Of a stretch of 49,723 nucleotides of DNA, positions 10,320-46,175 are shown in pieces. The notes beneath the pieces were generated by a model. It did not search any database. It saw nothing but the letters and a program-made list of their open reading frames with translations, and was not told where the DNA came from. A program made the position numbers and the translations under genes. Numbering within the stretch: position 1 is the first letter of the stretch; each line of letters starts with the position of its first letter. The stretch comes from Chloroflexota bacterium (GTDB lineage Bacteria; Chloroflexota; Anaerolineae; B4-G1; DUEL01), in NCBI GenBank assembly GCA_011388675.1, contig DROW01000174.1, positions 1 through 49,723 of the forward strand. The letters run 5' to 3'.

Positions 10320-10340
10320 GGCAAAGGAGAGAGGCAAGCG

Positions 10341-11303: not shown

Positions 11304-11319
11304 TCGCTTTGAGGTGGGA

Positions 11320-12267: not shown

Positions 12268-12307
12268 GTGGAGCGGGCGTCTTCATCGTTGCCGACTACG
12301 AAGCGGG

Positions 12308-13009: not shown

Positions 13010-13042
13010 GGGAAAAAGACCACTTTACTCTGGAGGATGAAG

Positions 13043-13582
13043 ATGGACATTCAGTTGAACGCGCGGAATCTGGAGATCACACCCCGTCTCCGGGAGTATG
13101 TGGAGAAGAAAGTCTCTAAGTTGAACCGCTACCTGCCGAACCTGGACGAGGTGCGGGTCGATCTCTCGGTGGAGAGTGCCCGGTCCAGCGACCAGCGACA
13201 GGTGGCCCAGTTGACCGCTTGGGTTGGCGGGACGGTCCTTCGGGCTGAGGAGCGGGCGGGAGACCTGTTCGCCGCCATCGATGTCGCGGTGGACAAGATG
13301 CGACGGCAGATCTCCCGGTACAAGGAGCGGAGACAGGATCGATGGCAGCGGTCGGGTGGGGCGCGTACCGCCCCGCCGCCCGAGGAAGAGGAAGGCGGCG
13401 GCACCCTGGTCCGCATCAAGCGGTTCGACATGGTGCCGATGACGCCCGAGGAGGCCATCGAACAGATGGAGTTGCTGGGGCATCAGTTCTTCGTTTTCCT
13501 GAACGCAAACGAGGGGGAGATCAACGTCGTCTATCGGCGCCGTGATGGGAACTATGGGTTGATTATGCCTCAGATCAGGTGA
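13043..13582 (+). CDS. hpf: ribosome hibernation-promoting factor, long form
   Basis: MDIQLNARNLEITPRLREYVEKKVSKLNRY.. is the sigma54-modulation/S30AE fold. The C-terminal dimerisation domain is present (..IKRFDMVPMTPEEAIEQMELLGHQFFVF..). The ATG at 13043 lies 6 nt after GGAGG. Confidence 0.9.
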   Translation: MDIQLNARNLEITPRLREYVEKKVSKLNRYLPNLDEVRVDLSVESARSSDQRQVAQLTAWVGGTVLRAEERAGDLFAAIDVAVDKMRRQISRYKERRQDRWQRSGGARTAPPPEEEEGGGTLVRIKRFDMVPMTPEEAIEQMELLGHQFFVFLNANEGEINVVYRRRDGNYGLIMPQIR

Positions 13583-13611
13583 GGCCGAGGTCGACGCAGC
13601 GAAGCGTGGGA

Positions 13612-13641
13612 GCCCGGTAGGTCGACCTGCCGGGCTTCCTT
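13612..13641 (+). terminator. hairpin terminator candidate after hpf
   Basis: GCCCGGTAGGTCGACCTGCCGGGC is a near-perfect palindrome (one G-U pair). It is followed by TTCCTT. Confidence 0.45.
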
Positions 13642-13662
13642 ATGTAGAAATGTGGAAGCGCG

Positions 13663-14784
13663 ATGGCTGGTGGGGTGACGCTGGTCCTGATGGTGGGTGG
13701 GGAGGCGCGCAGCCCGGTCGAGCGGGCGGTTCGCCGGGCGCGGGAGGCTGCGGCGTGCGACCTTCTGGAGGCGTTGCTGGAGGCCGGGTGCGTGGCGCGG
13801 GCCGTCGTCGCCACCGACGACCCCCGCTGGACGGCGTCGCTGACCCACCTGCCCGTGGAGGTCGACCTCGACCGGCCGGGCGAGCCGTTCCACTTCGGCC
13901 GTCGGCTGGCCGGCCTCGTCCGTCGCTACCGGCTGAACGGGGTGTTGTACGCCGGCGGGGGAGCGGCCCCGTTGATGTCCCCGTCCGCGTGGCGGAGGGC
14001 CCTTGCCGATTTCGCCGCCGGAAGGGTGGCGGTCGTGACCAACAACCTTCATTCTTCCGATTGGGTTGCCTTCCGTGCCACGGAGGAATGGCTGTCCCTC
14101 GTCTCCGCCCAGGAGCGGGATAACGGGCTGGCGTGGGCGCTGGCCCACGAGGCGGGGTTACCGACGCGCGCCCTCCCCCCCTCGGCGGCCACCCGGTTCG
14201 ATCTGGACACCCCGGCCGACCTGCTGATCGCGCGGGCTCACCCGAACACGCCGTCGCGCCTGCGGGAGGTCTTGCGCGCGCTCGATTGGCCTGGGGACGC
14301 CCTTGAGGGCGTGCTGGCGGCGATGGAACGGGAGGGGGGGCTGTTGGCCGTGATCGGCCGCTCCTCGTCGGCTGCCTGGACCGCGCTGGAGAGGGCTACC
14401 CGGTGCTGGGTGCGGATGTACGTGGAGGAGCGCGGGATGGTCGCCAGCGGGCGGCTTCGTCGGGGAGAGGTTCGTTCCCTTCTCGCCGAGTACCTGGAAC
14501 AGGTGGGGCTGGAGGGTTTTTTCTCCACCCTGGGCGATCTGGCCGACGCGGTGCTGATGGACAACCGTGTGATCCTGGCCGCGCGCGGACGGTGGCCCTC
14601 CCGGGCCGACCGGTTCGCGGCCGATCTGTTCCGCTGGCAGGAGGTCGCGGACCCGTTCCTGCGGGCGTTCGCCCGGGCGGCGGCGGCGGCGGAGATCCCC
14701 GTTCTGATGGGGGGCCAGTCCGTCGTCTCCGGCGGGCTGCTGGCGCTGGTCGAGATCCTGACGTCGCGGAGAGAGGGATGGTGA
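13663..14784 (+). CDS. hypothetical protein. The N-terminal half is tentatively MobA/CofC-like (GT-A nucleotidyltransferase fold); the C-terminal half is unknown.
   Basis: Coherent codon usage and an ATGGTGA start/stop overlap with the next gene. Weak motifs only (..VLMVGGEARSP.., ..FDLDTPADLL..). The function is not established. Confidence 0.55.
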   Translation: MAGGVTLVLMVGGEARSPVERAVRRAREAAACDLLEALLEAGCVARAVVATDDPRWTASLTHLPVEVDLDRPGEPFHFGRRLAGLVRRYRLNGVLYAGGGAAPLMSPSAWRRALADFAAGRVAVVTNNLHSSDWVAFRATEEWLSLVSAQERDNGLAWALAHEAGLPTRALPPSAATRFDLDTPADLLIARAHPNTPSRLREVLRALDWPGDALEGVLAAMEREGGLLAVIGRSSSAAWTALERATRCWVRMYVEERGMVASGRLRRGEVRSLLAEYLEQVGLEGFFSTLGDLADAVLMDNRVILAARGRWPSRADRFAADLFRWQEVADPFLRAFARAAAAAEIPVLMGGQSVVSGGLLALVEILTSRREGW

Positions 14785-15275
14785 GGCGAGTTCTCTTCGT
14801 GTGTGCGGGCAATCTGTGCCGTTCCCCGATGGCGGCGGCGATCCTGCGGTCTCGCCTGGAGCGGGACCCCCGCCGGAAGGACTGGGAGGTCGCGTCGGCT
14901 GGCCTGTGGGCGGAAGAGGGCCTGCCGGCCAGCGAGCCGGCGATCCGGGTTATGGCGGAGCGGGGGTACCGCATCGATCACCACCGGTCCCGCCGGGTCA
15001 CCCGGCAGATGCTGGAGCGGGCCGACCTGGTTCTCGGGATGACCCCCGACCACGTCGAAGCGCTGCGGCTGGCCTTCCCCGACCTGGCGGATCGGGTCCA
15101 CCTGCTGGCGGAGATGATCGGCGGATCCTTTGGCGTGGAGGACCCCTATGGGCGGCCGCTCGGCGTCTACCGGGTGGTGGCGGACGAGTTGGAGCGGATC
15201 GTCGAAGGGGGGTATGACCGAATCGTCTCCCTGGCGGAACGCGGCGGGCGCGTCGCTGGGGAGCCTCCGCCGTAA
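14778..15275 (+). CDS. low-molecular-weight protein tyrosine/arginine phosphatase family
   Basis: The P-loop VLFVCAGNLCRSPMAAA gives the CX5R(S) signature, and a DP(Y/F) motif is present (VEDPYG). The ATG at 14778 overlaps the upstream stop. Confidence 0.85.
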   Translation: MVRRVLFVCAGNLCRSPMAAAILRSRLERDPRRKDWEVASAGLWAEEGLPASEPAIRVMAERGYRIDHHRSRRVTRQMLERADLVLGMTPDHVEALRLAFPDLADRVHLLAEMIGGSFGVEDPYGRPLGVYRVVADELERIVEGGYDRIVSLAERGGRVAGEPPP

Positions 15276-15356
15276 TGATCCCTGAGGGGGCTGAGGGCGT
15301 TCGGGCCCTCCTCAATCCGCTCCTATTCTGAAGCACACCCCCGGCGGAAAGACAAG

Positions 15357-15384
15357 TTGACTGTATTGGAAGAACAGGTATAAT
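15357..15384 (+). promoter_or_regulatory. sigma70-type promoter for the DUF4388/GTPase operon
   Basis: TTGACT (15357-15362), 16-nt spacer, TATAAT (15379-15384). Confidence 0.5.
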
Positions 15385-15452
15385 CAAGTCACTTCGACGA
15401 GAGTTGGGGAAGACGGGGGACCTGAAGGCTCCGCTAAGAAGGCAGGCAGGAT

Positions 15453-16283
15453 ATGGCGCTGAAAGGGAATCTGCGCGACTTCAACACCACTCAGTTGTTC
15501 AACCTGATCAACCTGGCACGGAAGACAGGGACGCTGACTATTGAGACCAAGGACGCGCGGGCCCGGCTCTGCTTCAAAGAGGGGAAGTTGATCTACGCTG
15601 GTCTCGACGGGCAGGACGATCGCCTGGTCACCATTCTCCTCAAGGCCGGGAAACTCACCGAGGAGCAAGCGCGCACCATCCGTGCTCGGTCCGACATCAA
15701 AAACGACAAGGAACTGGGGCTGCTGCTGATCAACGCGGGCTATGTATCCCAGGAGGACATCGTCCGCAGCGTGCGGGAGCACACGCTGGAGACGGTGTAC
15801 CAGTTGTTCAACTGGACGGAGGGCACGTTCCGCTTCGAGCCCGGCCTGCTTCCCATTGAGGGCCGGATCACCGTCCCCATCGACCTGGAGAACGTGATTA
15901 TGGAGGGCAGCCGTCGGCTGAAGGAATCGGCCCGGCTGGAGGAGGAACTGCCCAACCTGGATATGGCCCTTAAGTTCACGGATCGCCCAGATGCCCGTAT
16001 GCGGACCATCAACCTCACCGTTGAGGAATGGCGGGTCGTTTCCTTCATCAATCCCCGGAACACGATTCGCCAGATTGCTCAGTACAACAATATGAGCGAT
16101 TTCCAGATCCGGCGCATCGTCTACGGCCTGCTGCAGGCGGGGTTGGTGGAGTTGGTACCCCCGGAAGGTGTGGAGCGGAAGCCTCCCCCGGGTGCGCCTC
16201 CTGGCACTCCACCGAGGCCACGACGTCCAGCAGTGAAACGGAGCATCATCCAACGACTGATCGACCGCATCCGGGAGCTGTAG
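15453..16283 (+). CDS. DUF4388 (PatA-N-like) domain protein with a Pro-rich C-terminal tail
   Basis: The N-terminus LKGNLRDFNTTQLFNLINLARKTGTLTIE..ARLCFKEGKLIYA matches the DUF4388 pattern. The C-terminus is PPPGAPPGTPPRPRRP followed by a short helix. Confidence 0.7.
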   Translation: MALKGNLRDFNTTQLFNLINLARKTGTLTIETKDARARLCFKEGKLIYAGLDGQDDRLVTILLKAGKLTEEQARTIRARSDIKNDKELGLLLINAGYVSQEDIVRSVREHTLETVYQLFNWTEGTFRFEPGLLPIEGRITVPIDLENVIMEGSRRLKESARLEEELPNLDMALKFTDRPDARMRTINLTVEEWRVVSFINPRNTIRQIAQYNNMSDFQIRRIVYGLLQAGLVELVPPEGVERKPPPGAPPGTPPRPRRPAVKRSIIQRLIDRIREL

Positions 16284-16286
16284 GAT

Positions 16287-16847
16287 ATGCAAACGCTGAA
16301 GATGGTTGTTACTGGCCCCTTTGCGGCCGGAAAGACGCAGTTCATCCAGAGCGTCAGCGAGATCGACGTCGTCGAGACCGAGGCAAAGATCACTCGGGAC
16401 GAGGAAAAGATCAAGGACCGCACCACGGTGGCGATGGACTTCGGCCGCATCACCATCGACGAGGACCTGGTTCTCTACCTTTTCGGGACGCCTGGACAGC
16501 GCCGATTCGACTTTATGTGGGAGATCCTCTCCGAGGGGATGCTGGGTTTCGTTGTGGTCGTGGACAGCACGCGGCCGGAGACGTTCCGGGAGGCGCGGGA
16601 GATCCTCGATACGTTTTACAACTACGCGCCGACGCCCTACGTGGTAGCGGCGAACAAACAGGATCTGGAAGACGCGTGGGAGCCGGAGGACCTGCGGATC
16701 GCGCTCCGCATCCCCCGCGACGTGAAGGTCATTCCCTGCGTCGCCACCGACAAGGAAAGCGTGAAGCGGGTGTTGCTGGAGTTGCTGTATTCCATCCTGG
16801 AAACGATGGACGACCAGGAGGGAGAGGAGGGCGAGTCTGCGCAGTAG
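16287..16847 (+). CDS. small Ras-like GTPase of the MglA/CvnD (COG2229) type
   Basis: G1 is GPFAAGKT, G3 is FGTPGQ (no Asp, as in MglA-type proteins), and G4 is NKQD. It starts 3 nt after the DUF4388 gene. Confidence 0.8.
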   Translation: MQTLKMVVTGPFAAGKTQFIQSVSEIDVVETEAKITRDEEKIKDRTTVAMDFGRITIDEDLVLYLFGTPGQRRFDFMWEILSEGMLGFVVVVDSTRPETFREAREILDTFYNYAPTPYVVAANKQDLEDAWEPEDLRIALRIPRDVKVIPCVATDKESVKRVLLELLYSILETMDDQEGEEGESAQ

Positions 16848-16880
16848 GCCGAGGAGGGCGTCCTACAGAAATGGAAGGGC

Positions 16881-16909
16881 GGGGTCGAGCCGTTCGACCC
16901 CCTTTCTTT
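16881..16909 (+). terminator. Rho-independent terminator after the GTPase gene
   Basis: GGGGTCGA-gccgt-TCGACCCC stem-loop, followed by CTTTCTTT. Confidence 0.6.
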
Positions 16910-16995
16910 GGCTGTGATGACCTGTTCGGATCGGGCGACGCTCGTAACCGCTTCGTAATCGAGTTGGAACACAGGGCCCTCTTCCCCGTGGTTAA

Positions 16996-17004
16996 TGGTA
17001 TGAT
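16996..17004 (+). promoter_or_regulatory. extended -10 promoter candidate for the eight-gene operon
   Basis: TGgTATGAT lies 48 nt upstream of the ATG at 17052. There is no good -35 element. Confidence 0.35.
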
Positions 17005-17051
17005 ATGATAAGGAAAGCGGGTGGTCTATACCGGCGCTCGGTAGGGAAGGT

Positions 17052-17837
17052 ATGAGTTCGATCGTCACCGATCGAGGGTTGGTGCACTACGAGGCCTATG
17101 GACGCGGCCAGCCGGTCATCTTCCTCCATTGCTGGCTGGGATCGTGGAGTTATTGGGTCAGCACAATGGAGGCGTTGAGGGACCGGTACAAGACGTATGC
17201 GCTGGATTTCTGGGGGTTTGGTGAGTCGGCGAAGAAGGGGGATCAGTTCGGCGTCTCCGATTACGTCGAGATGGTGATGCAGTTTATGGAACGGATGGGG
17301 CTGGAAAGGGCCCCCGTGATGGGGCATTCGATGGGGGGGACGGTTTCTCTCAGCCTGGCCCTGACTTACCCCGAGCGCGTGGAGAAGGTGGCCGTGGTGG
17401 GGTCTCCGATCAGCGGCGACGGCCTCGCATTGATCCTGAAACTGGCCGCCAAACGGTACCTGGCCGCCCTCGCCTACGGGATCCCGGGCGTCCTCCCCCT
17501 GGGGGTGCGCCTGTTCTCCCCTTTCCTGACCCGCGACTGGAAGCGCTGGTATGGGATGTTCGAGCAGGACCTTTCCCGTACAACGCTGCACTCCTTTCAT
17601 TACAGCATCGCTTCGCTGCGGAAGACGGACCTGACCCCGCGCCTGAAAGAAATCCAGGTGCCGGTCCTGGGGATCTACGGTCTCAGGGACCGGATCGTCG
17701 ACCCGAAGCAGGGGGAGCTGCTGGAGCGGCACGCTCCGTTCGGCCAGGTCGCCTACTTCGATCAATCCGGCCACTTCCCGATGCTGGACGAGCCGGACCG
17801 GTTTCACGCTACGTTGGGAGAGTTTCTTGATCGATAG
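17052..17837 (+). CDS. alpha/beta-hydrolase fold protein (intact Ser-Asp-His triad)
   Basis: HCWLGSW oxyanion region, nucleophile elbow GHSMGG, Asp in GLRDRIV, His in SGHFPMLDEP. Confidence 0.8.
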   Translation: MSSIVTDRGLVHYEAYGRGQPVIFLHCWLGSWSYWVSTMEALRDRYKTYALDFWGFGESAKKGDQFGVSDYVEMVMQFMERMGLERAPVMGHSMGGTVSLSLALTYPERVEKVAVVGSPISGDGLALILKLAAKRYLAALAYGIPGVLPLGVRLFSPFLTRDWKRWYGMFEQDLSRTTLHSFHYSIASLRKTDLTPRLKEIQVPVLGIYGLRDRIVDPKQGELLERHAPFGQVAYFDQSGHFPMLDEPDRFHATLGEFLDR

Positions 17838-17849
17838 GAAGGGCTAGCG

Positions 17850-18503
17850 ATGCCATCTGCTTCGAGGAACACGGCCGAGCCGGACCAACTCGCCTACGCT
17901 TTCCCCAACAAGATGGGGCGGATCCTCCTCCTGGCGATGGAGGAAGTGATGGGGCAGAACGGGCTGACGGCGATCCTGAACCTGGCCAATCTGCGCCACC
18001 TGCAGGGGCGGTACCCGCCGAACAACTTCGATATGGACTTCCTTTTCGACGACGTCTCGCGGCTGTTCACCGCGCTGGACGAGATGTACGGGCCGCGCGG
18101 GGGGCGTGCGCTGGCCCTGAGGATCGGCCGGGCCTGCTTTCGGTTCGGTATCAAGGACTTCGGCCCAATGCTGGGCGTGGCGGATCTGGCCTTTCGGGTG
18201 GTTCCGCTGGAGATGAAGGTCCGTATCGGGTTGGAGGTCTCCGCCGAGGTGTTCAACCGGTTCAGCGACCACCGTGTCCGTCTGGAGGAGGACGAGGAGG
18301 ACCTCGTGTGGCTTGTCGACCGCTGCGGGGTTTGCTGGGGGCGCGAGGTGACCGCCCCCTGCTGCCACGCGACGGTCGGCTTCCTCCAAGAAGGGCTCTA
18401 CTGGGTCAGCGGCGGACGGAACTTCGATGTGGAGGAGGTGGCCTGTATCGCCGCTGGGGATGAGGCCTGCGCCGTTCGGATCAGCAGGCAGCCTGTCGAT
18501 TGA
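17850..18503 (+). CDS. V4R (4-vinyl reductase / BchJ- and XylR-sensor-like) small-molecule-binding domain protein
   Basis: The C-terminal Cys-rich V4R signature is VDRCGVCWGREVTAPCCHATVGFLQEGL..VEEVACIAAGDEACAV. It starts 12 nt after the upstream stop. Confidence 0.7.
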   Translation: MPSASRNTAEPDQLAYAFPNKMGRILLLAMEEVMGQNGLTAILNLANLRHLQGRYPPNNFDMDFLFDDVSRLFTALDEMYGPRGGRALALRIGRACFRFGIKDFGPMLGVADLAFRVVPLEMKVRIGLEVSAEVFNRFSDHRVRLEEDEEDLVWLVDRCGVCWGREVTAPCCHATVGFLQEGLYWVSGGRNFDVEEVACIAAGDEACAVRISRQPVD

Positions 18504-18509
18504 GGTAAG

Positions 18510-19766
18510 ATGCGGAAGATCATTCTCCGGGACCGCAAGCCGATATCGCCCTTCAACGAACCCGCCCGCGACCTGAGGGTGCTGAATAAGCCGTTGTGGC
18601 TCTACCAGCGGGATCTGCTCGCGCCTTACGTAACCCAGGAGCGGGAGGTGGATTCGTTTGAGGAGATCGGCCCGGAGCGGGTGGAGACCCTGGTCTACCG
18701 GGAGAACCTCTTCTTCGACCAGGAGTTCATCGAGGCCTTCCTCACCAAGGCGCGAAGGTTGGGCAAGGCGTGCCAGGTGGCCTTCCCGCTGGACGACAAG
18801 GCGATCGCCGAGCACGCCCTCCCCCTCCAGCGAACGATCCGCAGGGAGGGGGAACTGTATGTCGCCGATATGTGGTACTTCCCCTACGGAATCGAGGAGA
18901 ACGTCCGCCCCCTGGTGATGCACACCGAGCCGCGGGAAGTGGGGTACTACCACGTCCCGACCCATATGTCCAACGAGATGGGCGACCTGGTCTACAACGT
19001 GCCGACCAAAGCGTTTCTGGCCATCGAGACCTGGGTCCACGTACTGCTGGCCAACATCGTCTTTGGGGTGTTCGCCAGGGGGGCGCGGTTCGAGCGGGAC
19101 GTGGAGCGAAGTGTCCGCCTGCCCCTGCGCCTGCTCTGGCGGGCGCTCCTTGAGCAGAAGCAGGTTCTCTCTTCGTCCGCCGTGGTGAAGATCGGGCGAA
19201 ACTGCTCCATCGATCCCAGCGCGGTCATCCGCGGGCCGACGACCATCGGCGACAACGTCACCATCGGCCCGGGCGTCGTCATCGATAACTGCATCATCGG
19301 CAACAACGTGGACATCGCCCAGGGGTGCCAACTTCTGCTCAGCGTCGTCAGCGACCGCTGCTTCCTGCCCTTCCGGGCTTCTCTGTTTATGACGGTCCTG
19401 ATGGAGGACTCAATGGTCGCCCAGAACACGTGTCTCCAGTTATGCGTGGTGGGGCGAAACTCTTTCATCGGGGCGGGAAATACGTTCACCGACTTCAACC
19501 TGATCCCGAAACCCCTTCGGGTCCCCTACGATGGGAAACTGGAGCCGACCAATATGCCGGTCCTGGGCGGGTGCGTGGGCCATAACTGCCGGATCGGTTC
19601 CGGGATGGTCGTCTACCCGGCCCGGACGATCGAGTCGGACACGGTGTTGGTGCCATCGGCAGAACGGAGGGTGATCGAGAAGAACGTTACGTTTGAGGAA
19701 AGCGACCTGCACAAGATACCCGGTGGAATGCGGATGCATCCGCGGCTCTACCCTCCGCCCCGCTGA
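18510..19766 (+). CDS. left-handed beta-helix (hexapeptide-repeat) protein, alternative-GlmU / putative sugar-nucleotidyl/acyl-transferase-like
   Basis: Hexapeptide run IGRNCSIDPSAVIRGPTTIGDNVTIGPGVVIDNCIIGNNVDIAQGCQL... The N-terminal ~230 aa have no classical GxGxR NTP-transferase motif. It starts 6 nt after the upstream stop. Confidence 0.65.
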   Translation: MRKIILRDRKPISPFNEPARDLRVLNKPLWLYQRDLLAPYVTQEREVDSFEEIGPERVETLVYRENLFFDQEFIEAFLTKARRLGKACQVAFPLDDKAIAEHALPLQRTIRREGELYVADMWYFPYGIEENVRPLVMHTEPREVGYYHVPTHMSNEMGDLVYNVPTKAFLAIETWVHVLLANIVFGVFARGARFERDVERSVRLPLRLLWRALLEQKQVLSSSAVVKIGRNCSIDPSAVIRGPTTIGDNVTIGPGVVIDNCIIGNNVDIAQGCQLLLSVVSDRCFLPFRASLFMTVLMEDSMVAQNTCLQLCVVGRNSFIGAGNTFTDFNLIPKPLRVPYDGKLEPTNMPVLGGCVGHNCRIGSGMVVYPARTIESDTVLVPSAERRVIEKNVTFEESDLHKIPGGMRMHPRLYPPPR

Positions 19767-38913: not shown

Positions 38914-39576
38914 TCAGTTGCCCCCGCGCCGGGGGCCTCGGCGGAACCGGTCGCGCAGGGAGCCGGAGGATCGTGGTTCGTCGTCCGGCCCGGAGAGGCG
39001 GGCACCGCATTGGCTGCAGAAGCGGGCGCCTGGCTCCATCAGCGCGCCGCAACGGGGGCATTTCACCGGTTGGACGTCGCCCAGGGGCGCGCCGCAGGCG
39101 GAGCACTTGGGGGCACCGATGGGGTTGCCCACGCCGCAGTACGGGCAGACGACGACCGTCTCCTCCGCCCGCAGGCCGAGACTGGCCCCCACGCTCTCGC
39201 AGTAGTGCTCCACCGCCGCCCACACCTGCTGGGGCAGGGTCAAGCCGGAGATGGAGCGGGCGATGTCGTCGATGCGGGTGATGAGGGAGAGGGGGTTGAT
39301 GAGGGCCAGCAGGCCGGTCTGAGCCAGGTCGGCCACGGCCCCCAGCCACCGCTGTTGGCCCAGGGAGACCCGGACTCCGCCCTCGACGCGGGCGATGCCG
39401 ACGGTCAACGCCGTCTGGGGGCCGCCCCACTCCCAGTCGCGGGAGGCGATCTGGACGAGGACGTGGTCGCCGTGCCCAATCTTCTGCGCCATCAGGTCGC
39501 CCCGGTTGAACTGGGCGACGAGGGCGTCGGCCAGCGCGTCCGGCTCGATCTCGCCACGGTAGGTTCGTTGGTCCAT
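38914..39576 (-). CDS. double zinc-ribbon protein with an uncharacterised N-terminal domain
   Basis: The C-terminus is CPYCG..CSACG..CPRCG..CSQCG. The ATG follows AGGAGGTGAGATCGAT. Confidence 0.6.
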   Translation of the reverse strand: MDQRTYRGEIEPDALADALVAQFNRGDLMAQKIGHGDHVLVQIASRDWEWGGPQTALTVGIARVEGGVRVSLGQQRWLGAVADLAQTGLLALINPLSLITRIDDIARSISGLTLPQQVWAAVEHYCESVGASLGLRAEETVVVCPYCGVGNPIGAPKCSACGAPLGDVQPVKCPRCGALMEPGARFCSQCGARLSGPDDEPRSSGSLRDRFRRGPRRGGN

Positions 39577-39583
39577 ATCGATC

Positions 39584-40336
39584 TCACCTCCTGTGGAGTT
39601 CGGCGATTTGTCGCACGATCTGGGCGAAGGCGACGGGGTCGCGCCCGCGGCGGCTGGCCCCCAGCCCGTCCACGTCGGGGTCGGCCAGCAGCGCGCCGGC
39701 GTGCTCCGGGGTGACGGAACCGCCGTAGATGATGCGGACTGCCTCTGCCGTCGCTTCTCCGTGCCGTTGGATGATCCACCGGCGGATGGCCCGGCAGCCG
39801 GCGGCGACGTGGGCTGGCGACACCGGCTCTGCCCGCCCGATGGCTCCCTCCGGCTCGTAGACGAAGGCCATCCGGGTGATCTCCTCGCCGCTGCATCCGG
39901 CCAGCAGGGTGGCAAGTCGGTCGGGGTCGAAGGGCTCGCCGTAGGGTTCCCCCACCAGCAGGATGGGGCGCAGGCCGGCGTCGAGGGCCGCCCGCACCTT
40001 CCGGTTGACCGCCGGGTCGTCTTCCCCCAGCCGACGGCGTACCTCCCAGTGGCCGACCATCACCCAGGTGGCTCCGGCGTCGACCAGGAGGGGGCCGGAG
40101 ATCGCGCCGGTGTGGGCCTCGCCGGGGCCGGGCCACAGGTCCTGCCCGCCCACACTGATCCCCGTCCCCCGCAGGGCCTCCGCCAGGGTGTGGATCGCCG
40201 TATACGGCGGGCAGACGACGATCTCCACCCGCTCCACCAGATCCGCCACGCGGGGGAGGAATTCCCGGATGAAGGCCCGTGTCTGGGCCAGTGTCATCGC
40301 CATTTTCCAGTTGGAGAGGGCGAGCGGTTTGCGCAT
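39584..40336 (-). CDS. tpiA: triose-phosphate isomerase
   Basis: ..LALSNWKM.. (catalytic Lys region), ..VMVGHWEVRR.. (His/Glu region), ..IIYGGSV... I preferred the ATG at 40336. The longest ORF (GTG) reaches 40360. Confidence 0.9.
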   Translation of the reverse strand: MRKPLALSNWKMAMTLAQTRAFIREFLPRVADLVERVEIVVCPPYTAIHTLAEALRGTGISVGGQDLWPGPGEAHTGAISGPLLVDAGATWVMVGHWEVRRRLGEDDPAVNRKVRAALDAGLRPILLVGEPYGEPFDPDRLATLLAGCSGEEITRMAFVYEPEGAIGRAEPVSPAHVAAGCRAIRRWIIQRHGEATAEAVRIIYGGSVTPEHAGALLADPDVDGLGASRRGRDPVAFAQIVRQIAELHRR

Positions 40337-40389
40337 CTTCTCTTTCCAAGTGCTAACCACGGAGACAGCAGGGACACAGAGTTTCCGTA

Positions 40390-40557: not shown

Positions 40558-43500
40558 TTATCCCCCGCGCAGGATGAGGGGCAGGAAAAGCAGCCGGGGG
40601 TGGGAGCCGGGGTTGAGCGGATCGGTGTTTCGGGCCACTTCCTCCCCGTCCTGCCACCCGTCGTCGTCGGTGTCCGCATCCAGCGGGTCCGTCCACCTGT
40701 CGAACTCCTGCTCGTTGGTCAGGCCATCGCCGTCGGGGTCCCCCGATGCGCCGTTATCTCCTGTGGCGTCGTTGGGGTCTAACCCCCGACCCACCTCCCA
40801 GTACGTGGGTAGGCCGTCCCCGTCGGCATCGGTGGAGGCCCCGGTCTGGCAGGTTACGGTGAAGACCATTCGGGTCCAGAGGGTGGTGGTGAGGGTGTTG
40901 GGATCGTGTTGCAGCGGGATGACGGCTAACCCGGCCAGCGTGCCCGCTCCGCTAGCGGCGGTGGTCGTGTAGACGGAGTAGGGTTGCGTCGGGTAGAGAC
41001 CATCGGCCTCGAATCGCTCCCTCACCATCCCTTGACCGTTGCCATCGCCGCTCGGGGGCACGTACATTGCACCGTCGGCCACCCAGGTCGTGCTTTGAGA
41101 GGCGGCCTGATCCCATTCCACGCTGGTAACCGCCGAGCCGGGAGGCAGGAGGGTCCAGGCCTTGAAGACGGGGAAGGGGGGCTCATCGAAACGCCCGCCG
41201 TAACCTGCCCCCGGGATCTTCAGATACCACTCGGAGCCCACCTTGTGGATGGTCCATTCGGGCACCCGCAGTTCCACGCGGTAGCGAAGGATGCCGGGTT
41301 CGAGATAGGGCGGGGGGTCGAGGTACTCCGGTCGCAGCCAGTATCGGTCCCACGACCAGGGTGGGAGGAGGAAGCACCGGGCGCGGTAGTTGGGAATGCC
41401 GTAGAGGGTGGTGATGGCGATGACCCGGCGCTCGACGGTTCCGATCCCGCCGACGTCGGTCACGTAACTGTTGACGGCCCGCCGGAAGGCCTCTCCGGCC
41501 GTGATGCAGCCGTCTTGGGCGAGGTGCTGGATGATGTATGTGGACAGTTTTTCGTTGTGCCGTGTCCCGCTCGTGTCGGTGCTGCAGCCCGTGGAGGAGA
41601 TCGCCGTGTAGCCGGTGGCCCCCACGTAGATGCCCACCTCTCTCTCGGCGAACTCCTCGGGGAACTCGGAGTAGGTGGTGCCGGCGTCGGGGGCGTGGTA
41701 GAGTTGGTTGCCGAAACTGGCCCCGTTGTGGCACCCGGAGGTGACGATGACGGCGTTGGGCAGGTCGTTCAGGGCGGCCGTGTCGCCGTAGGAGGGGTGG
41801 TCGCCAGCGTAGAACGCCTCCGCGCTCGTGGAGATAGCGTTGTAGTCCCCATGCCCCCCGAAGTAAACCAGGTCGCTTCCGGCGTTCAACTTGGGTGGTA
41901 CGTCGTTAGAGTCGTACGAACATTGCACGAGGTCATCGTCGGTGCTGGTTCCCATCCAGTCGGCTGCCAGCGTACCGCCGTCCAGGTAATCAGAGGAGGC
42001 GATGGAGATCTGGTCCGCACGGGAGAAACGGCCGTAACTGGCGAGATAGGTGTCGATCAGATCGCCGATCTGGGAGGGCGTCTCCACCAGGCGGCCCACC
42101 GCCAGTTCGGGGACCAGTTCGTGCTGGTCGCCCCAGCCGTCGTCGACGTAGGAGAGGTCGCCGTAGATGGAGTCGGTGAGGTAGTGGCCCCAGCCGTTGA
42201 CCTGACCGGGCGTGGAGTAGAGTTGGCGGATGTAACTGTCGGGGTCGGGCAGGTTGGCGCCCCAAAACCGTTCCTGGGCCGAAAACAGGTGGTCCTGTTC
42301 CCGCGCCTTCATCGGGATCACCTCGTTGGCACCGACGATGATGAGGTAGGAGAGGTTGGGATATGCGGCCTGCTTGAGGTGTTCGATATAACCGTCGATG
42401 GCCGTCACGCAGGCGTTGTTCGCCTCCACGCTTCCCTCGTTCCCCTCCCAGTTGGCGCAGGTGGTCTGGAGATCGGACGGCGCGTGATCGCTCAGGTCCC
42501 GATGGAGGGCGGTCATATTAGTGAGGTCGGATGAGGTCCCGACCAGCGTGCTGACGTCGTTCGTCAGATCGACGACGTCGGCGTGTGCATACCCCAGGTC
42601 CTCCATCCGACCGTAGTCGGTCAGGATCAGGGTGTCCACTTTCATCCGCTCGATGAGGGACCAGACGACGTTGACGAAGACGTCCTTGCCGGTCTGGCTC
42701 ATACTGTCGGGACCGGCGTAGAATCCCCAGAGGAAGTAACGACCGTCCTCCTCGATCAAGGGGTAGTGGATGTCGTTGTCGCTCTGCCGGCCTACGGGCA
42801 GGACGTTGGCGAGGGGGGAGGGCATATAGATCGCCACGTGGGTGTTGGGGGTATCGTACAGGGTGACGAGGCGATTGTCGATAGGGATACGGTAGGGGAG
42901 GCTCCATATCGGATCGTTCGGATCCACGACGTTGATGTCCGTTCGGTTCAGAGCGGTCCAGCCCTGTCCCCACTTGATAAACAGGTCGAGTTCCTGGAAC
43001 AGGGAGGCCCCTCCCCCTCCGAGGCCGAGGATGGGTTTCCCGGACCCCTGGATCTTTTCCCGAGCGCCGTCTGACCCCGACCAGTCGTAGCCCCCGCCGG
43101 TGTCGTTGCCGACGAGGATCAGGTGGTAGGGGGAGAAGTCGGTGTCCGCGACCTGGCTCAGCGGCACCAGGGTTGTGTTCACCCCGTTGGCGACCAGCAG
43201 GTCCTTGAAGGCCTCGGCGGTGTTTACGTCGGCGTCGTAGATATAGGCGGCTGCCAGGGTGGGGGTGGTGACGGTGAAGGGAGTGGAGGCCTGGGCGTAG
43301 CCTGCGTTGACGTCGGCGAAGATCTGGTGGACGCCCTCCGAGGCCTCCGGAGGGACGACCACGGGCAGGGCGAACGTGCCGTCGGACCGGAGCGACGTGG
43401 AGCCGAGGTGGCGTCCGGTGTAGAGGGTGTCCCAGTACAGGGAGACCGTGTCGAAGGGGCCATAACCGGAGAAGGTGCCGGTGACCAGCGTCCAGGTCCC

Positions 43501-43650
43501 CGGCGGGCCGGAGGTGGGAGCAGCAGCGATGGTGTCCGCGAGGGGGGTGGAAGACACCCCCCTCGCAGGTAGAAGCATTCCGGTCAACAGCAACACGGTG
43601 CCGAGAAGCAGACGAGCGACGGTTCCCAGTTTAGAGCCCTTTGCGTTCAC
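40558..43650 (-). CDS. secreted peptidase C25 (gingipain-like) family protein with C-terminal thrombospondin-type-3-like Ca-binding repeats
   Basis: Signal peptide (ARLLLGTVLLLTGMLLPARG). C25-like blocks: YLIIVGANEVIPMK, YGDLSYVDDGWGD..VPELAVGRL, VYFGGHGDYN (His), VIVTSGCHNG (Cys). TSP3-like repeats: DADGDGLP..DPDGDGLTNEQE..DADTDDDGWQDGEE. GTG start 6 nt after AGGAGG. Confidence 0.7.
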   Translation of the reverse strand: MNAKGSKLGTVARLLLGTVLLLTGMLLPARGVSSTPLADTIAAAPTSGPPGTWTLVTGTFSGYGPFDTVSLYWDTLYTGRHLGSTSLRSDGTFALPVVVPPEASEGVHQIFADVNAGYAQASTPFTVTTPTLAAAYIYDADVNTAEAFKDLLVANGVNTTLVPLSQVADTDFSPYHLILVGNDTGGGYDWSGSDGAREKIQGSGKPILGLGGGGASLFQELDLFIKWGQGWTALNRTDINVVDPNDPIWSLPYRIPIDNRLVTLYDTPNTHVAIYMPSPLANVLPVGRQSDNDIHYPLIEEDGRYFLWGFYAGPDSMSQTGKDVFVNVVWSLIERMKVDTLILTDYGRMEDLGYAHADVVDLTNDVSTLVGTSSDLTNMTALHRDLSDHAPSDLQTTCANWEGNEGSVEANNACVTAIDGYIEHLKQAAYPNLSYLIIVGANEVIPMKAREQDHLFSAQERFWGANLPDPDSYIRQLYSTPGQVNGWGHYLTDSIYGDLSYVDDGWGDQHELVPELAVGRLVETPSQIGDLIDTYLASYGRFSRADQISIASSDYLDGGTLAADWMGTSTDDDLVQCSYDSNDVPPKLNAGSDLVYFGGHGDYNAISTSAEAFYAGDHPSYGDTAALNDLPNAVIVTSGCHNGASFGNQLYHAPDAGTTYSEFPEEFAEREVGIYVGATGYTAISSTGCSTDTSGTRHNEKLSTYIIQHLAQDGCITAGEAFRRAVNSYVTDVGGIGTVERRVIAITTLYGIPNYRARCFLLPPWSWDRYWLRPEYLDPPPYLEPGILRYRVELRVPEWTIHKVGSEWYLKIPGAGYGGRFDEPPFPVFKAWTLLPPGSAVTSVEWDQAASQSTTWVADGAMYVPPSGDGNGQGMVRERFEADGLYPTQPYSVYTTTAASGAGTLAGLAVIPLQHDPNTLTTTLWTRMVFTVTCQTGASTDADGDGLPTYWEVGRGLDPNDATGDNGASGDPDGDGLTNEQEFDRWTDPLDADTDDDGWQDGEEVARNTDPLNPGSHPRLLFLPLILRGG

Positions 43651-43665
43651 AGGGTACCTCCTGTG

Positions 43666-45732
43666 CTAATGGCCGCGCAGGACGAGGGGGAGGAAGACGC
43701 GGGAGGGGAGGCGCCAGATCCGGACCTCGACGTAGTCGGCGAAGCCGTCTTCGGGACGGCGGTAGACGGTGATGGAGGAGGAAGTGAGGCTGCGCCAGTA
43801 GGTTCCCACTCGGTCGTCGGCGTTGTAGCCCGCCGGGGGGTTGGCGCCGAAGTCGGCCCCGCCGTAGTGCCGCTGGTTCACGCCGTTCGAGGCACTGAAT
43901 TGCCACATCACTACCAAGTAGTCGTACGGATTTCCTCCTAGGTTGTGGGTAAACGTCTGAGACACGTCCCGCCCGATGAGCGTCCAGTCGCTGTCGTAGT
44001 CCGGCGCTGCCATTCGCCATATGCGCACGCGCACCTGCTCGGCGTAGATGTCCTCGGGGCGGCGGTAAACGGTGATGGAGGAGTTGTCGAGGCTACGCCA
44101 GTAGGCTCCCACCCGATCGTCCTCGTTCATCCCCGAGGGCGGATGGTCTCCGAAGTCCGCCCCGCCGTAGTAGCGCTGATTCACGCCGCTGCCTGTGTTC
44201 CTGTACTGCAGGTCGACCAGGTAATCGCCAATGGACCCTCCCAGGTTGTGGTTCAGGGTGGTGGAAGTGTCTTGGGCCAGGGAGACCCAGCCGCTGTCGT
44301 AGTCCGGTTGGGGCATCTTCCAGATGCGGACGCGGACCTGTTCGGCGTAGATGTCCTCGGGGCGGCGGTAAACGGTGATGGAGGAGGAGGTGAGGCTGCG
44401 CCAATAGGCTCCCACCCGCTCGTTCTCCGCTGAGCCGCCGAACGACTTGGCTCCGAAGTCCGCCCCGCCGTAGTAGCGGAGGTTGACTCCGTTGTTGCCG
44501 CTCATCCTGTACTGCATATCCACCAGGTAGTCGTCCGTGTCGCCCCCCAGATCGTGGGTGATGGTTTTGGCCTCGTTTTGTCCTATGGAGACCCAACCGC
44601 TGTCGTAATCGGGGTAGGTGGGGGTCCAGTAACGCCAGATGCGGATGCGGACCTGCTCGGCGTAGATGTCCTCGGGGCGGCGGTAAACGGTGATGGAGGA
44701 GTCGTCGAGGCTGCGCCAGTAGGCTCCCACCCGATCATCCTCGTTCATCCCCGAGGGCGGATGGGCTCCGAAATCCATCCCGCCGAAATACCGCTGGTTG
44801 ATGCCGCTGCCCCCGCTCCAATATTCCATGTAGACCACGTAGTCGTCGGGATCGCCGCCGATGTTGTGGTACAGCGTCTTCACCTGATCGGTGCCCAGGG
44901 AGACCCATCCGCTGTCGTAGGTGGGGTTGGGCCGGACCCAGATGCGGACGCGGACCTGCTCGGCGTAATCGTCCTCCGCGCGGCGGAAGAGGGTGATGCT
45001 AGTGGTGTTCAGGGACCGCCAGTACACTCCCACCCGGTCGTCCTCCCGGGTGCCGTTGAAGGCCAGGGCTCCGAAGTCCGCCCCGCCGTAGTAGCGCTGG
45101 TTGACGCCGCTGTCGCTGTTACGGTACTCCATATAGACCACGTAGTCGTCGACGTTGCCTCCGAGGTTGTGGTTGAGGGTCGTGCCTGTGGCCCCTGGCG
45201 TCAGGGAGATCCAGCCGCTGTCGTAGTCAGGGTAAGCATCGACCCAGATGCGGATGCGCACACGCTCGGCGTAGATGTCCTCCGGGCGGCGGTAGACGGT
45301 GATGGTGGAGGTGGTGAGGCTGCGCCAGTAGGCCCCTACCCGCTCGTCCTCCGCTGAGCCACCGAACGACTTGGCCCCGAAGTCCGCCCCGCCGCAGTAG
45401 CGGAGGTTGACCCCATTGTTGCCGCTACTTGTCCAGTACTGCATATCCACGACGTAATCGTCCACGTCTCCCCCCAGGTTATGGGTGAGCGTCTCCGCCT
45501 CGCCGGGGTCTATGGAGATCCAACCGCTATCGTAGGCGGGACCGCCCGAGTAGGCGTAGGTAGTGGCGGAGGTTGCCTCGATCGCTGCACCTCCCATCGG
45601 GGCTGGTTCAGACATCCCCGGGAGATACCCCGGTTCCTCGGGACCGCTCGGTCCCTGGGCGTGAATCGCGCCTAAGGGCAAGATCGTGAGGATCACGATG
45701 ATGCTGCTGATGACCATCCACTTCGTTTTCAT
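43666..45732 (-). CDS. secreted protein built from six tandem ~102-aa repeats of an unrecognised domain
   Basis: Signal peptide (VISSIIVILTILPLGAIHAQG). Six units follow, each with YDSGW..HNLGG..DDY(V/L)V..GVNQRYYGGADFG..DDRVGAYWRSL..SITVYRRPEDIYAEQVRVRIW. SD is AAGGAG. Confidence 0.75.
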   Translation of the reverse strand: MKTKWMVISSIIVILTILPLGAIHAQGPSGPEEPGYLPGMSEPAPMGGAAIEATSATTYAYSGGPAYDSGWISIDPGEAETLTHNLGGDVDDYVVDMQYWTSSGNNGVNLRYCGGADFGAKSFGGSAEDERVGAYWRSLTTSTITVYRRPEDIYAERVRIRIWVDAYPDYDSGWISLTPGATGTTLNHNLGGNVDDYVVYMEYRNSDSGVNQRYYGGADFGALAFNGTREDDRVGVYWRSLNTTSITLFRRAEDDYAEQVRVRIWVRPNPTYDSGWVSLGTDQVKTLYHNIGGDPDDYVVYMEYWSGGSGINQRYFGGMDFGAHPPSGMNEDDRVGAYWRSLDDSSITVYRRPEDIYAEQVRIRIWRYWTPTYPDYDSGWVSIGQNEAKTITHDLGGDTDDYLVDMQYRMSGNNGVNLRYYGGADFGAKSFGGSAENERVGAYWRSLTSSSITVYRRPEDIYAEQVRVRIWKMPQPDYDSGWVSLAQDTSTTLNHNLGGSIGDYLVDLQYRNTGSGVNQRYYGGADFGDHPPSGMNEDDRVGAYWRSLDNSSITVYRRPEDIYAEQVRVRIWRMAAPDYDSDWTLIGRDVSQTFTHNLGGNPYDYLVVMWQFSASNGVNQRHYGGADFGANPPAGYNADDRVGTYWRSLTSSSITVYRRPEDGFADYVEVRIWRLPSRVFLPLVLRGH
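43705..45534 (-). repeat. in-frame tandem DNA repeats (period ~300-312 nt, 6 copies) inside the CDS
   Basis: For example, 44038-44145 and 44656-44763 differ at only about 3 positions. Repeats 1 and 4 also share long near-identical stretches (45260-45420 vs 44340-44500). Confidence 0.8.
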
Positions 45733-45800: not shown

Positions 45801-46175
45801 ATGGACGCTCGGAGGATTGCTTCAGGTACCGTCCTGTTGGCGGTGTGCCTCTTGCTGGTCGGCTGTACTTCGCTTCCCAGAGGGGCCAAGGAGGCGGTAC
45901 TCTCTTCCTTCATCCCTGAAGAGGAGCCGCGCATCCTCTCCGCCCACAGAGCCCATCTCTTGCCGGAGGACGCCACGGCTGGGGTGGAGGAGGTGTGGTG
46001 CGTTGAGGTCGCCTTTCAGTGCTGGAGTTGCCCGTACGGGGAATGGCGCACCTGCGTCTCCGGCTATCTCGTCCGCCGTCTAGGGGACCGGTGGGAGTCG
46101 ATGGAGATGCAAACAGAGGAAGAGTGGGCTGGATGGGAGGCGAGAGGGTGTCCGCAGGTGCCCGAATCCCCGTGA
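45801..46175 (+). CDS. small Cys-rich putative lipoprotein
   Basis: Lipobox LLLVGCTS, GGGAGGGG SD, consensus promoter upstream. Six further Cys residues (..WCVEVAFQCWSCPYGEWRTC..GC..). No recognisable family. Confidence 0.55.
   Translation: MDARRIASGTVLLAVCLLLVGCTSLPRGAKEAVLSSFIPEEEPRILSAHRAHLLPEDATAGVEEVWCVEVAFQCWSCPYGEWRTCVSGYLVRRLGDRWESMEMQTEEEWAGWEARGCPQVPESP

Follow-up and report, generated by a model that had tools for sequence, protein, structure and literature searches.

YLP-box-type tails, matching a catalogued putative sorting motif, at the C-termini of two adjacent secreted proteins of a Chloroflexota bacterium, one of them a C25-type peptidase-like protein

The window, which is the whole stretch of 49,723 nucleotides analysed here, contains two neighbouring genes on the reverse strand whose products share a short C-terminal tail. 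ORF calling and translation confirmed that the tail-bearing ORFs are 43666..45732(-), of 688 amino acids, and 40558..43650(-), of 1030 amino acids; as the preliminary description had it, they are adjacent, 15 nt apart and have a common C-terminal tail. The features of the locus are as follows.

43666..45732, minus strand: gene for a secreted 688-aa repeat protein with a YLP-box tail at its end (ORF, translation)
45658..45732, minus strand: aa 1-25 of the repeat protein, predicted to be a Sec signal peptide, ending AIHA/QG (read from sequence)
43669..43698, minus strand: tail V-F-L-P-L-V-L-R-G-H of the repeat protein, a YLP-box with F instead of Y (ORF, motif scan, NCBIfam)
43651..43665, minus strand: intergenic spacer of 15 nt that contains GGAGG (cat tag CACAGGAGGTACCCT gtg)
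40558..43650, minus strand: gene for a secreted 1030-aa clan-CD (C25-type) peptidase-like protein with a YLP-box-like tail (ORF, Pfam PF01364)
43558..43650, minus strand: aa 1-31 of the C25-type protein, predicted to be a signal peptide (read from sequence)
42652..43290, minus strand: class-I glutamine-amidotransferase (GATase)/flavodoxin-like alpha/beta domain, aa ~121-333 (Foldseek, profile search)
41446..42408, minus strand: Peptidase_C25 catalytic region, aa 415-735 (Pfam)
41851..41853, minus strand: His600 (GGHG), invariant in 28-29 homologues
41731..41733, minus strand: Cys640 (SGCHNG), invariant in 28-29 homologues
40846..41298, minus strand: beta-sandwich domain like the gingipain pro-domain, aa ~785-935 (profile versus PDB, Foldseek)
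40606..40839, minus strand: bacterial thrombospondin type-3 (calcium-binding) repeats, aa ~938-1015 (Pfam TSP3_bac)
40561..40590, minus strand: YLP-box-like tail L-F-L-P-L-I-L-R-G-G of the C25-type protein (ORF, motif scan, orthologue register)

The short spacer with its GGAGG is consistent with a putative single operon. The genes near the pair in the window are housekeeping genes, namely those for TIM, RF-1, Sua5, an ELP3-like radical SAM protein and a sugar dehydratase. The N-terminal signal peptides that had been assigned to both proteins are indeed Sec-like, with predicted cleavage at MKTKWMVISSIIVILTILPLGAIHA/QG and MNAKGSKLGTVARLLLGTVLLLTGMLLPARG/VS.

The 688-aa protein is composed of six tandem repeats of ~105 aa, which correspond to six beta-sandwich domains in the AlphaFold2 model (pLDDT 88.6, pTM 0.87). 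In this model, the N-terminus is a helix, residues 2-17, followed by a low-confidence linker. The protein has no match in Pfam or in PDB sequence searches, and a fold search gave weak matches to lectin and jelly-roll structures. It has at least 597 homologues, and those with names are from Chloroflexi/Anaerolineae. Its C-terminus is WRLPSRVFLPLVLRGH, which ends in RVFLPLVLRGH, and residues 681-688 have a pLDDT of about 50; the tail therefore lies outside the fold.

The 1030-aa protein (AlphaFold2 pLDDT 82.8) ends with GSHPRLLFLPLILRGG, whose last residues are LLFLPLILRGG. Its N-terminus is modelled as a helix, residues 6-25, followed by a low-confidence segment. The GATase-like domain resembles GATase domains (2a9v, TMt 0.64) and GMP synthases in Foldseek, and a profile search matched flavodoxin at residues 140-216. 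The preliminary assignment to the C25 type holds, as residues 415-735 score 46.9 bits with PF01364 (cut-off 23, E=2.9e-12). His600 and Cys640 form a putative catalytic dyad; no catalytic domain that would allow their superposition on gingipain catalytic residues was retrieved by PDB sequence search or among the top 50 fold matches. The protein is a putative secreted cysteine peptidase. The region that follows matched the pro-domains of Kgp (5mun_A, E=5.6e-4) and RgpB (4ief_A, E=0.03) by profile against the PDB, and 5mun_B by Foldseek (probability 1.0, TMt 0.65); this gingipain-pro-domain-like fold sits C-terminal to the catalytic domain. In the thrombospondin type-3 region, a ladder of Asp residues from D941 to D1001 is invariant in 28 aligned homologues. 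The tail has a pLDDT below 50. In both models, the tail is free, at a pLDDT of about 50 or lower.

The preliminary description proposed an undescribed tag, but two models of NCBIfam release 20, NF050076.1 (sort_motif_YLP) and NF053834.1 (ultrashort_CTERM), already cover it under the name YLP-box putative sorting motif-containing protein. Our literature search found no paper on the YLP-box, which is known as a curated, putative motif. Because of HMMER's filters, the standard NCBIfam scan reported nothing for the full-length window proteins, and tail fragments were used for scoring. The curated cut-offs of both models were reached by the tail of the 688-aa protein and by those of C25-type orthologues. 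For the repeat protein, a 26-aa fragment scored 16.4 bits with NF050076 (cut-off 15) and 14.3 bits with NF053834 (cut-off 10), and a 38-aa fragment scored 14.3 and 12.4 bits, respectively. The window tail LLFLPLILRGG drew no hmmscan report from either model at E<=10; it aligns in register with the orthologue tails RSVFLPLVLRSR, QRIFLPLVLRNYS and NLYLPLIVRGY, and the tails of the orthologues P0003, P0009 and P0022 pass both models. The consensus of the YLP-box is [RKQ]-x-[IVL]-[YF]-L-P-[LVI]-[VI]-x-[RK]-x(0-3)-COOH. Both window proteins have two residues after the Arg and predicted signal peptides, and homologues that have names are Chloroflexi/Anaerolineae; both tails are probably copies of the YLP-box. 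They share with the catalogued motif the consensus, the extreme C-terminal position, the host phylum and the type of secreted cargo; they differ in having Phe for Tyr and in ending with RGH and RGG rather than the common RNY.

A six-frame scan found the strict motif at these two C-termini only, each two residues before the stop, in agreement with the earlier remark that no other protein in the window carries it. At the DNA level, a degenerate pattern encoding [YF]-L-P-x-[VIM]-x-R matched twice in 49.7 kb, while 0.02 matches were expected from shuffles. The tail is kept in 29/29 homologues of the C25-type protein and in 103/120 of the repeat protein, down to about 41% identity. Its Pro is invariant, and over 95% of the homologues have 4-7 residues after it. 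From this conservation, the invariant Pro and the DNA count it follows that the motif is not due to chance. Moreover, the tagged genes use six different Arg codons in the motif and the DNA 3' of the stop is not conserved: selection on the protein, not on the DNA, keeps the tail. That the shared tail arose by chance, or belongs to a DNA element repeated at the ends of genes, has next to no probability. Nothing but the shortness of the motif speaks for it, and against it stand the count in the window, the retention of the tail across homologues at 41-66% identity, and the synonymous variation of its codons together with a lack of conservation in the DNA downstream. Codon variation, positional conservation and the DNA count thus rule out such an origin.

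Species genomes were scanned with the pattern Y-L-P-x-[VIM]-x-R-N-Y-stop, which samples the RNY variant only and occurs at no fewer than 120 loci (at least 120). Among the matches listed, 94/125 end ORFs of at least 80 aa, and almost all of these 94 belong to MAGs of Chloroflexota (Anaerolineae, Thermoflexales, Ardenticatenales and Caldilineae); the listed matches in other phyla are non-stops or lie in ORFs under 31 aa. In 2.9 M viral contigs, the same pattern gave 6 matches, all in ORFs of at most 45 aa. In 649 ORFs, the strict motif was found 84 times within 10 residues of the C-terminus and twice internally, and 8 of the 84 C-terminal cases had not been preselected by the search pattern. 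The enrichment of signal peptides, a check that the preliminary description had proposed, was observed: 35/47 tagged ORFs have a signal-peptide-like N-terminus versus 91/457 untagged ones (OR 11.7, P=6e-14), as scored by a crude home-made heuristic on greedy ORF calls in high-GC DNA. The tagged cargo comprises DUF11, PKD, beta-helix/choice-of-anchor Q and D, CARDB, Big and FG-GAP families, that is, unrelated surface-type proteins with typical surface modules. One small tagged family has more than 4274 clusters. In the neighbourhoods of the tagged genes, no gene for a candidate receptor or enzyme recurred.

The slot occupied by the tail can hold other modules. Homologues of the repeat protein outside the Chloroflexi end in dockerin-like DxNGDxxIDIAD tails, and distant homologues of the C25 family and of the GATase-like domain have tails that are dockerin-like, TM-plus-basic (PEF-like) or of T9SS type. 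This swapping between modules supports a sorting or anchoring role. The GATase-like domain is common to other large secreted proteins (P0030-P0034, the neighbour of the repeat protein in the related 451-kb contig L123, and P0245). In P0245, three repeat units (65% identity) are fused to the GATase-like domain (50% identity); it is shared domains, rather than the tag, that link the C25-type protein to the six-repeat protein.

The YLP-box probably marks Sec-exported cargo, to be read outside the membrane and retained or attached at the surface, with both window proteins as cargo. Led by their signal peptides, both would leave the cell via Sec. The flexible tail with its free C-terminus would then be recognised outside the membrane by a putative factor, which would keep or attach the cargo at the cell surface, with or without cleavage of the tail; a possible site is the outer layers, decorated with proteins, of filamentous cells of the Anaerolineae type. 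In this scheme, the C25-type protein and the repeat protein would both be passengers that carry the tail. The earlier proposal of a sorting or processing tag thus stands in one part: secreted proteins do carry the tail as a genuine, modular tag at the C-terminus, for which sorting or anchoring is the best reading. The other part, in which the co-encoded C25-like protein is the processing enzyme, is not supported; the family is much rarer than tagged cargo, is absent from 855 kb around 94 other tagged genes and swaps its tail as cargo does.

It is very unlikely that the C25-type peptidase is a dedicated, PorU-like signal peptidase or transpeptidase for the YLP-box that bears the signal itself. 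PorU, the C25-family sortase of the T9SS, carries a T9SS domain itself and sets a precedent; the C25 catalytic region of the window protein is genuine, His600 and Cys640 do not vary among homologues, and the gene lies in an apparent operon with a tagged gene; in L125, two further tagged genes come after a C25 homologue. However, there are about 29 full-length clusters of this peptidase versus at least 597 of the repeat protein, a single-copy-like tagged cargo and ~20-fold more, and versus the more than 4274 of the small tagged family, and the 855 kb that surround the 94 tagged genes among the matches listed contain no C25 homologue. The two genes also part company: in L123 the repeat protein adjoins a different, non-C25, untagged protein, and in L124 the C25 homologue has no repeat-protein neighbour. 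Distant family members bear dockerin-like or TM-plus-basic tails, like cargo, and the gingipain-pro-domain-like domain points the same way, as gingipains are T9SS cargo. No PorU-type NCBIfam model matched the C25-type protein (E<=0.1). A role as general processing enzyme for the tag is disfavoured by the cluster counts and the 855 kb of neighbourhoods, in which the C25 family does not co-occur with the cargo; a PorU role in a T9SS is disfavoured by the missing model match, the 10-residue tag and the housekeeping neighbours in the window. There is a very slim chance that, within this Anaerolineae sub-lineage, the peptidase could cleave or transfer YLP-box cargo. If true, this would be a sortase-like surface attachment that dispenses with a membrane-spanning signal, in a phylum whose envelope is atypical and multilayered.

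Two further readings compete with sorting or anchoring. The tail could serve quality control or maturation as a recognition peptide at the C-terminus, read for turnover or activation rather than localisation by, for example, a PDZ-containing protease of the tail-specific (S41/Ctp) or HtrA type. PDZ proteases bind hydrophobic C-termini, and the tail is hydrophobic, unstructured in the models and at a fixed short distance from the carboxyl end. Their recognition usually hinges on the terminal residues, whereas the last 0-3 residues here vary widely (RNY, RK, QK, RE, RGH and RGG); furthermore, homologues fill the slot with anchoring or sorting modules, not degrons, and the cargo is of surface type. 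We consider this reading unlikely. It is also quite improbable that the tail is an assembly beta-strand that joins a partner subunit in donor-strand fashion, so that fibres or a sheath layer form. Its hydrophobic residues alternate and basic residues flank them, and abundant tagged proteins of ~100 aa, found in cassettes with fibre-like proteins, weakly resemble PamT, a tip pilin of CPR bacteria, in its N-terminal part, at a sub-threshold score (E=3.6e-6, 26.6 bits versus a cut-off of 240). Donor-strand pili in monoderm CPR bacteria offer a precedent (bioRxiv 10.64898/2026.03.03.709456). The central invariant Pro, however, is unfavourable within a regular strand, the tag also occurs on enzymes and on very large unrelated multidomain proteins, and no acceptor protein was found.

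Among known systems, the YLP-box resembles in layout the tripartite signals (LPXTG/sortase, PEP-CTERM/exosortase, PGF- or PEF-CTERM/archaeosortase and GlyGly-CTERM/rhombosortase). As with these, proteins that have a signal peptide end in a motif, hydrophobic residues and a basic residue; the YLP-box is likewise lineage-restricted, occurs on many unrelated cargo families, and sits in a slot that PEF-like signals fill in homologues. We know of no cognate sortase-like enzyme for it, and none was found in the neighbourhoods of the tagged genes. The hydrophobic part, however, has 3-4 residues instead of about 20. With only 3 hydrophobic residues from the Pro to the Arg/Lys, no membrane-spanning helix is possible, as had been noted for sortase- and exosortase-type signals; so short a part cannot hold cargo in the membrane as tripartite signals do, and the recognition step would therefore be without precedent. 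The T9SS, a Bacteroidota-type outer-membrane system, offers a second parallel: with PorU and the gingipains in mind, a C25-family peptidase here itself bears the C-terminal tag of its lineage and has a gingipain-pro-domain-like domain, and T9SS-type tails stand in for the YLP-box in some homologues with the GATase-like domain. In contrast, the signal of the T9SS folds into a domain of ~80 aa and the YLP-box is a 10-residue peptide, and, unlike in gingipains, the pro-domain-like fold comes after the catalytic domain. Dockerins fold into calcium-binding modules of ~25-60 aa and have a known cohesin partner, whereas the YLP-box is an unstructured decapeptide with, to our knowledge, no known partner. 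Nevertheless, the end of repeat-protein and C25-family homologues in other phyla holds a dockerin-like tail in place of the YLP-box, and this replacement suggests, by analogy, that the two may have an equivalent role in attachment.

The two genes lie side by side on the reverse strand, and their products, a repeat protein and a C25-type protein, end in a similar tail of about ten residues. This tail is referred to here as the YLP-box, and proteins that bear it are called tagged. The two genes are:

43666..45732, reverse strand: repeat protein gene, 688 aa, with the C-terminus ...WRLPSRVFLPLVLRGH followed by the stop
40558..43650, reverse strand: C25-type protein gene, 1030 aa, with the C-terminus ...GSHPRLLFLPLILRGG followed by the stop

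Translation of both ORFs confirmed the shared tail reported in the preliminary description. A six-frame scan found the strict motif solely at these two C-termini, each time two residues ahead of the stop, in agreement with the earlier remark that no other protein of the window has it. The degenerate DNA pattern had 2 matches in the window, where shuffled sequence would give 0.02. The genes probably form one operon, since they are separated by a spacer of only 15 nt, which contains GGAGG. Both N-termini have a basic and then a hydrophobic stretch, as is typical of Sec signal peptides; signal peptides had been noted for both.

The repeat protein is predicted to consist of six β-sandwich domains (pLDDT 88.6, pTM 0.87), and its final eight residues have a pLDDT of about 50. 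A fold search with it gave weak lectin or jelly-roll matches and nothing stronger, and PDB sequence searches with each window protein by itself returned nothing useful. The predicted structure of the C25-type protein (pLDDT 82.8) comprises, from the N- to the C-terminus, a signal peptide, an Ig-like domain, a GATase1/flavodoxin-like domain (hereafter GATase-like), the catalytic region, a β-sandwich that resembles a pro-domain, TSP3 repeats and a low-confidence tail. Pfam Peptidase_C25 matches residues 415-735 with 46.9 bits (cut-off 23), and His600 and Cys640 of the catalytic region are invariant across all homologues. The TSP3 repeats that directly precede the tail are of the bacterial type (Pfam). 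Profile alignment assigns residues ~121-333 to the GATase-like domain and not to a gingipain pro-domain. The β-sandwich at residues ~785-935 does resemble the gingipain pro-domain (profile match to 5mun with E=5.6e-4; Foldseek TMt 0.65). However, the pro-domain of gingipains is located before the catalytic domain, whereas this look-alike (40846..41298, reverse strand) is located after it, and it may be an inhibitory domain in a permuted arrangement.

The tag had been proposed as undescribed, but it is already catalogued. An NCBIfam scan of 91 tagged tails returned NF050076.1, 'sort_motif_YLP', and closer scans also matched NF053834.1, 'ultrashort_CTERM'; both entries carry the description 'YLP-box putative sorting motif-containing protein'. 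A 26-aa fragment of the repeat-protein tail scored 16.4 bits with NF050076.1 (cut-off 15) and 14.3 bits with NF053834.1 (cut-off 10), and a 38-aa fragment scored 14.3 and 12.4 bits, respectively. The tails of three C25 orthologues reach the cut-offs of both models, while neither model reported the window C25-type tail, LLFLPLILRGG, in the tail scan. NCBIfam scans with both full-length window proteins gave no YLP-box match, because so short a match is lost in the filters of HMMER. As the window shows, tails of the F-variant on long proteins escape standard scans. Literature searches with peptide strings, 'YLP-box' and 'ultrashort CTERM' found no paper on the motif, so the YLP-box is known as a curated putative motif.

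The distribution of the tail was studied by a DNA scan for Y-L-P-x-[VIM]-x-R-N-Y-stop in one genome per species (GTDB), which gave at least 120 loci. Among the 125 matches listed, 94 close ORFs of 80 aa or more, and these 94 are almost all from Anaerolineae, Thermoflexales, Ardenticatenales, Caldilineae or unclassified Chloroflexota MAGs. Several of the genomes have 3-5 loci each among the listed matches. The listed matches from other phyla, Bacteroidota and Proteobacteria among them, have TGG in place of a stop codon or close ORFs shorter than 31 aa, and are chance background. As a negative control, the same pattern had six matches in 2.9 million viral contigs, every one in an ORF of at most 45 aa. 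Long tagged ORFs were also seen on contigs binned as Hyphomicrobiaceae, Desulfovibrionaceae and Promethearchaeota (loci L018, L068 and L056); L018 and L068 have the common tail NNVKCITLKGGLLYLPLITRNY. These contigs are probably misbinned Chloroflexota, and the tail could thus be a contamination marker.

The tagged proteins are mutually unrelated, with domains that include DUF11, PKD, right-handed β-helix, CARDB, Big, FG-GAP, GH113 and 'choice-of-anchor' Q, D and T. In 649 greedy ORF calls from the tagged loci (207,000 residues), the strict motif occurs 84 times within 10 residues of the C-terminus and twice internally; eight of the 84 are independent of selection by the search pattern. A crude heuristic assigns a signal-peptide-like N-terminus to 35 of the 47 complete ORFs that are tagged and to 91 of the 457 that are not (odds ratio 11.7, P=6e-14), the enrichment that the preliminary description had suggested checking. 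The tagged genes use six different Arg codons and variable third positions, and the 30 bases past the stop are not conserved. Selection at the tail thus acts on the protein and not on the DNA, and a DNA repeat is rejected as the source of the shared tail.

Homologues of both window proteins retain the tail. All C25-type homologues, at identities between about 41% and 66%, have a related one (for example RSVFLPLVLRSR, RIFLPLVLRNYS, YIYLPVSLKSP and IIFLPLVTRS), even a 1120-aa variant with a different domain ahead of it. The motif terminates 103 of the 120 listed repeat-protein homologues, and the tagged ones, where their sources are named, are from Chloroflexi or Anaerolineae MAGs. Three of the other 17 seem truncated, and a Sumerlaeota protein and related sequences, also among the 17, have a dockerin-like module, GDVNGDSxIDIADIIYY, at the C-terminus instead. 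An alignment anchored at the invariant Pro gives the consensus [RKQ]-x-[IVL]-[YF]-L-P-[LVI]-[VI]-x-[RK], and four to seven residues follow the Pro in >95% of cases. The tail is thus conserved and modular.

By analogy with PorU, the C25-type protein had been proposed to process the tag. The comparisons argue against this role. The C25-type family has 37 matches, about 29 of them full-length. In the same database, the repeat-protein family has at least 597, and a single small tagged family has >4274. No C25 homologue was found by tblastn in 855 kb around other tagged genes, and PorU-type models did not match the C25-type protein. One C25 homologue (locus L124) has no adjoining repeat protein, and another (L125) is inside a run of other tagged genes. 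Downstream of the latter, two further unrelated secreted proteins (L125:13230-16640 and 16786-18888, forward strand) have the divergent tails HWVRLPLVYRGIP, which lacks an aromatic residue, and HRLYLPVSRK; tagged genes thus cluster. An exhaustive HMMER search showed that distant C25-family members have dockerin-like ends (P0165, P0203, P0252) or a TM-plus-basic end (P0228), and that GATase-like-domain proteins have PEF-like TM signals (P0196, P0197), T9SS-type tails (P0193, P0206, P0258) or dockerin-like ends. The C25-type family is best described, on this comparison, as cargo, because its members wear whichever tag their lineage uses. A trans-acting role in this sub-lineage is conceivable, but nothing supports it.

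The two genes are linked by their domains and not by the tag. A natural fusion protein, P0245 (1208 aa), joins three repeat units (65% identity) to a GATase-like domain (50% identity), the window counterparts of which are at 43666..45732 and 42652..43290, respectively, both on the reverse strand. This 'Rosetta-stone' protein suggests that the window pair act together through these domains. Furthermore, on a 451-kb Chloroflexota contig (L123), a tagged homologue of the repeat protein (10001-12073) is followed, in place of the C25 peptidase, by a 1448-aa VWA/Peptidase_C39_2-like protein (12192-16538, forward strand). This protein has no YLP tail, and its sole shared part is a GATase-like domain at its end.

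Clustering of the 649 ORFs from 90 tagged loci showed no untagged enzyme or membrane protein that recurs beside the tagged genes. The genes that flank the window pair are housekeeping genes, with no sorting-factor candidate. Divergent from the repeat-protein gene is a 124-aa ORF (45801..46175, forward strand) with a lipoprotein-like start (LLLVGC) and no Pfam match. Between RF-1 and triosephosphate isomerase, the ORF 38914..39915 (reverse strand) has a C-terminal double zinc ribbon cluster (CPYCG..CSACG..CPRCG..CSQCG); it overlaps the triosephosphate isomerase ORF 39584..40360, so its true start is probably further downstream.

What does recur at tagged loci is a cassette of a fibre-like protein, a small tagged protein and a tagged β-helix protein, seen in Chloroflexota at L023, L055, L064, L069, L071, L074, L079, L082 and other loci. 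The fibre-like protein is secreted and has GGGxxNxA repeats, with a TM-plus-Arg tail in some copies. The small protein, of ~100 aa, has a signal peptide, the pattern GGYDLTWN..GQPDAG..GGFWGG and a YLP tail; its family has >4274 clusters, every one named hypothetical. The third gene, often present, encodes a β-helix choice-of-anchor-Q protein with a YLP tail. Two small tagged proteins (L024:3986-4255, reverse strand; L069:1549-1860, forward strand) weakly match the N-terminal part of PamT, a CPR pilus tip protein (NF058579; E=3.6e-6, with 26.6 bits below the cut-off of 240), a likeness that may reflect just the signal peptide and first strands.

The preliminary description was thus right that the tag is real, and probably a sorting signal, but not that it is undescribed, and the proposed tie to the C25 enzyme is unsupported. 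Among the possible readings, a role of the YLP-box as a signal for surface sorting or anchoring has the best support: the tagged protein would first be exported by Sec, and the tail would then be read at its free C-terminus. This reading is favored because the distance of the tail to the C-terminus is fixed, because it is unstructured in both predicted models, lineage-restricted and confined to surface-type proteins with signal peptides, and because it interchanges with recognised anchoring or sorting modules. The YLP-box could possibly be a recognition peptide for a PDZ protease, or a donor strand, but both roles fit these data less well than sorting or anchoring.

The envelope of filamentous Chloroflexota has several outer layers and is poorly understood; to our knowledge, these bacteria have neither BAM nor LPS. 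The outer layers are a plausible destination of YLP-box cargo, and how the tail is read is a question about this envelope, no more tractable from the window, which contributes two more cargo proteins, than from the existing database entry. The YLP-box, which has no membrane anchor, is among the shortest protein-sorting signals proposed. The comparative results do not reveal the machinery; they strengthen the sorting-signal reading, marked merely putative by NCBIfam, because of the strict C-terminal position, the enrichment in signal peptides and the replacement of the tail in homologues, where dockerin-like, PEF-like and T9SS-type modules occupy the place of the YLP-box at the C-terminus.
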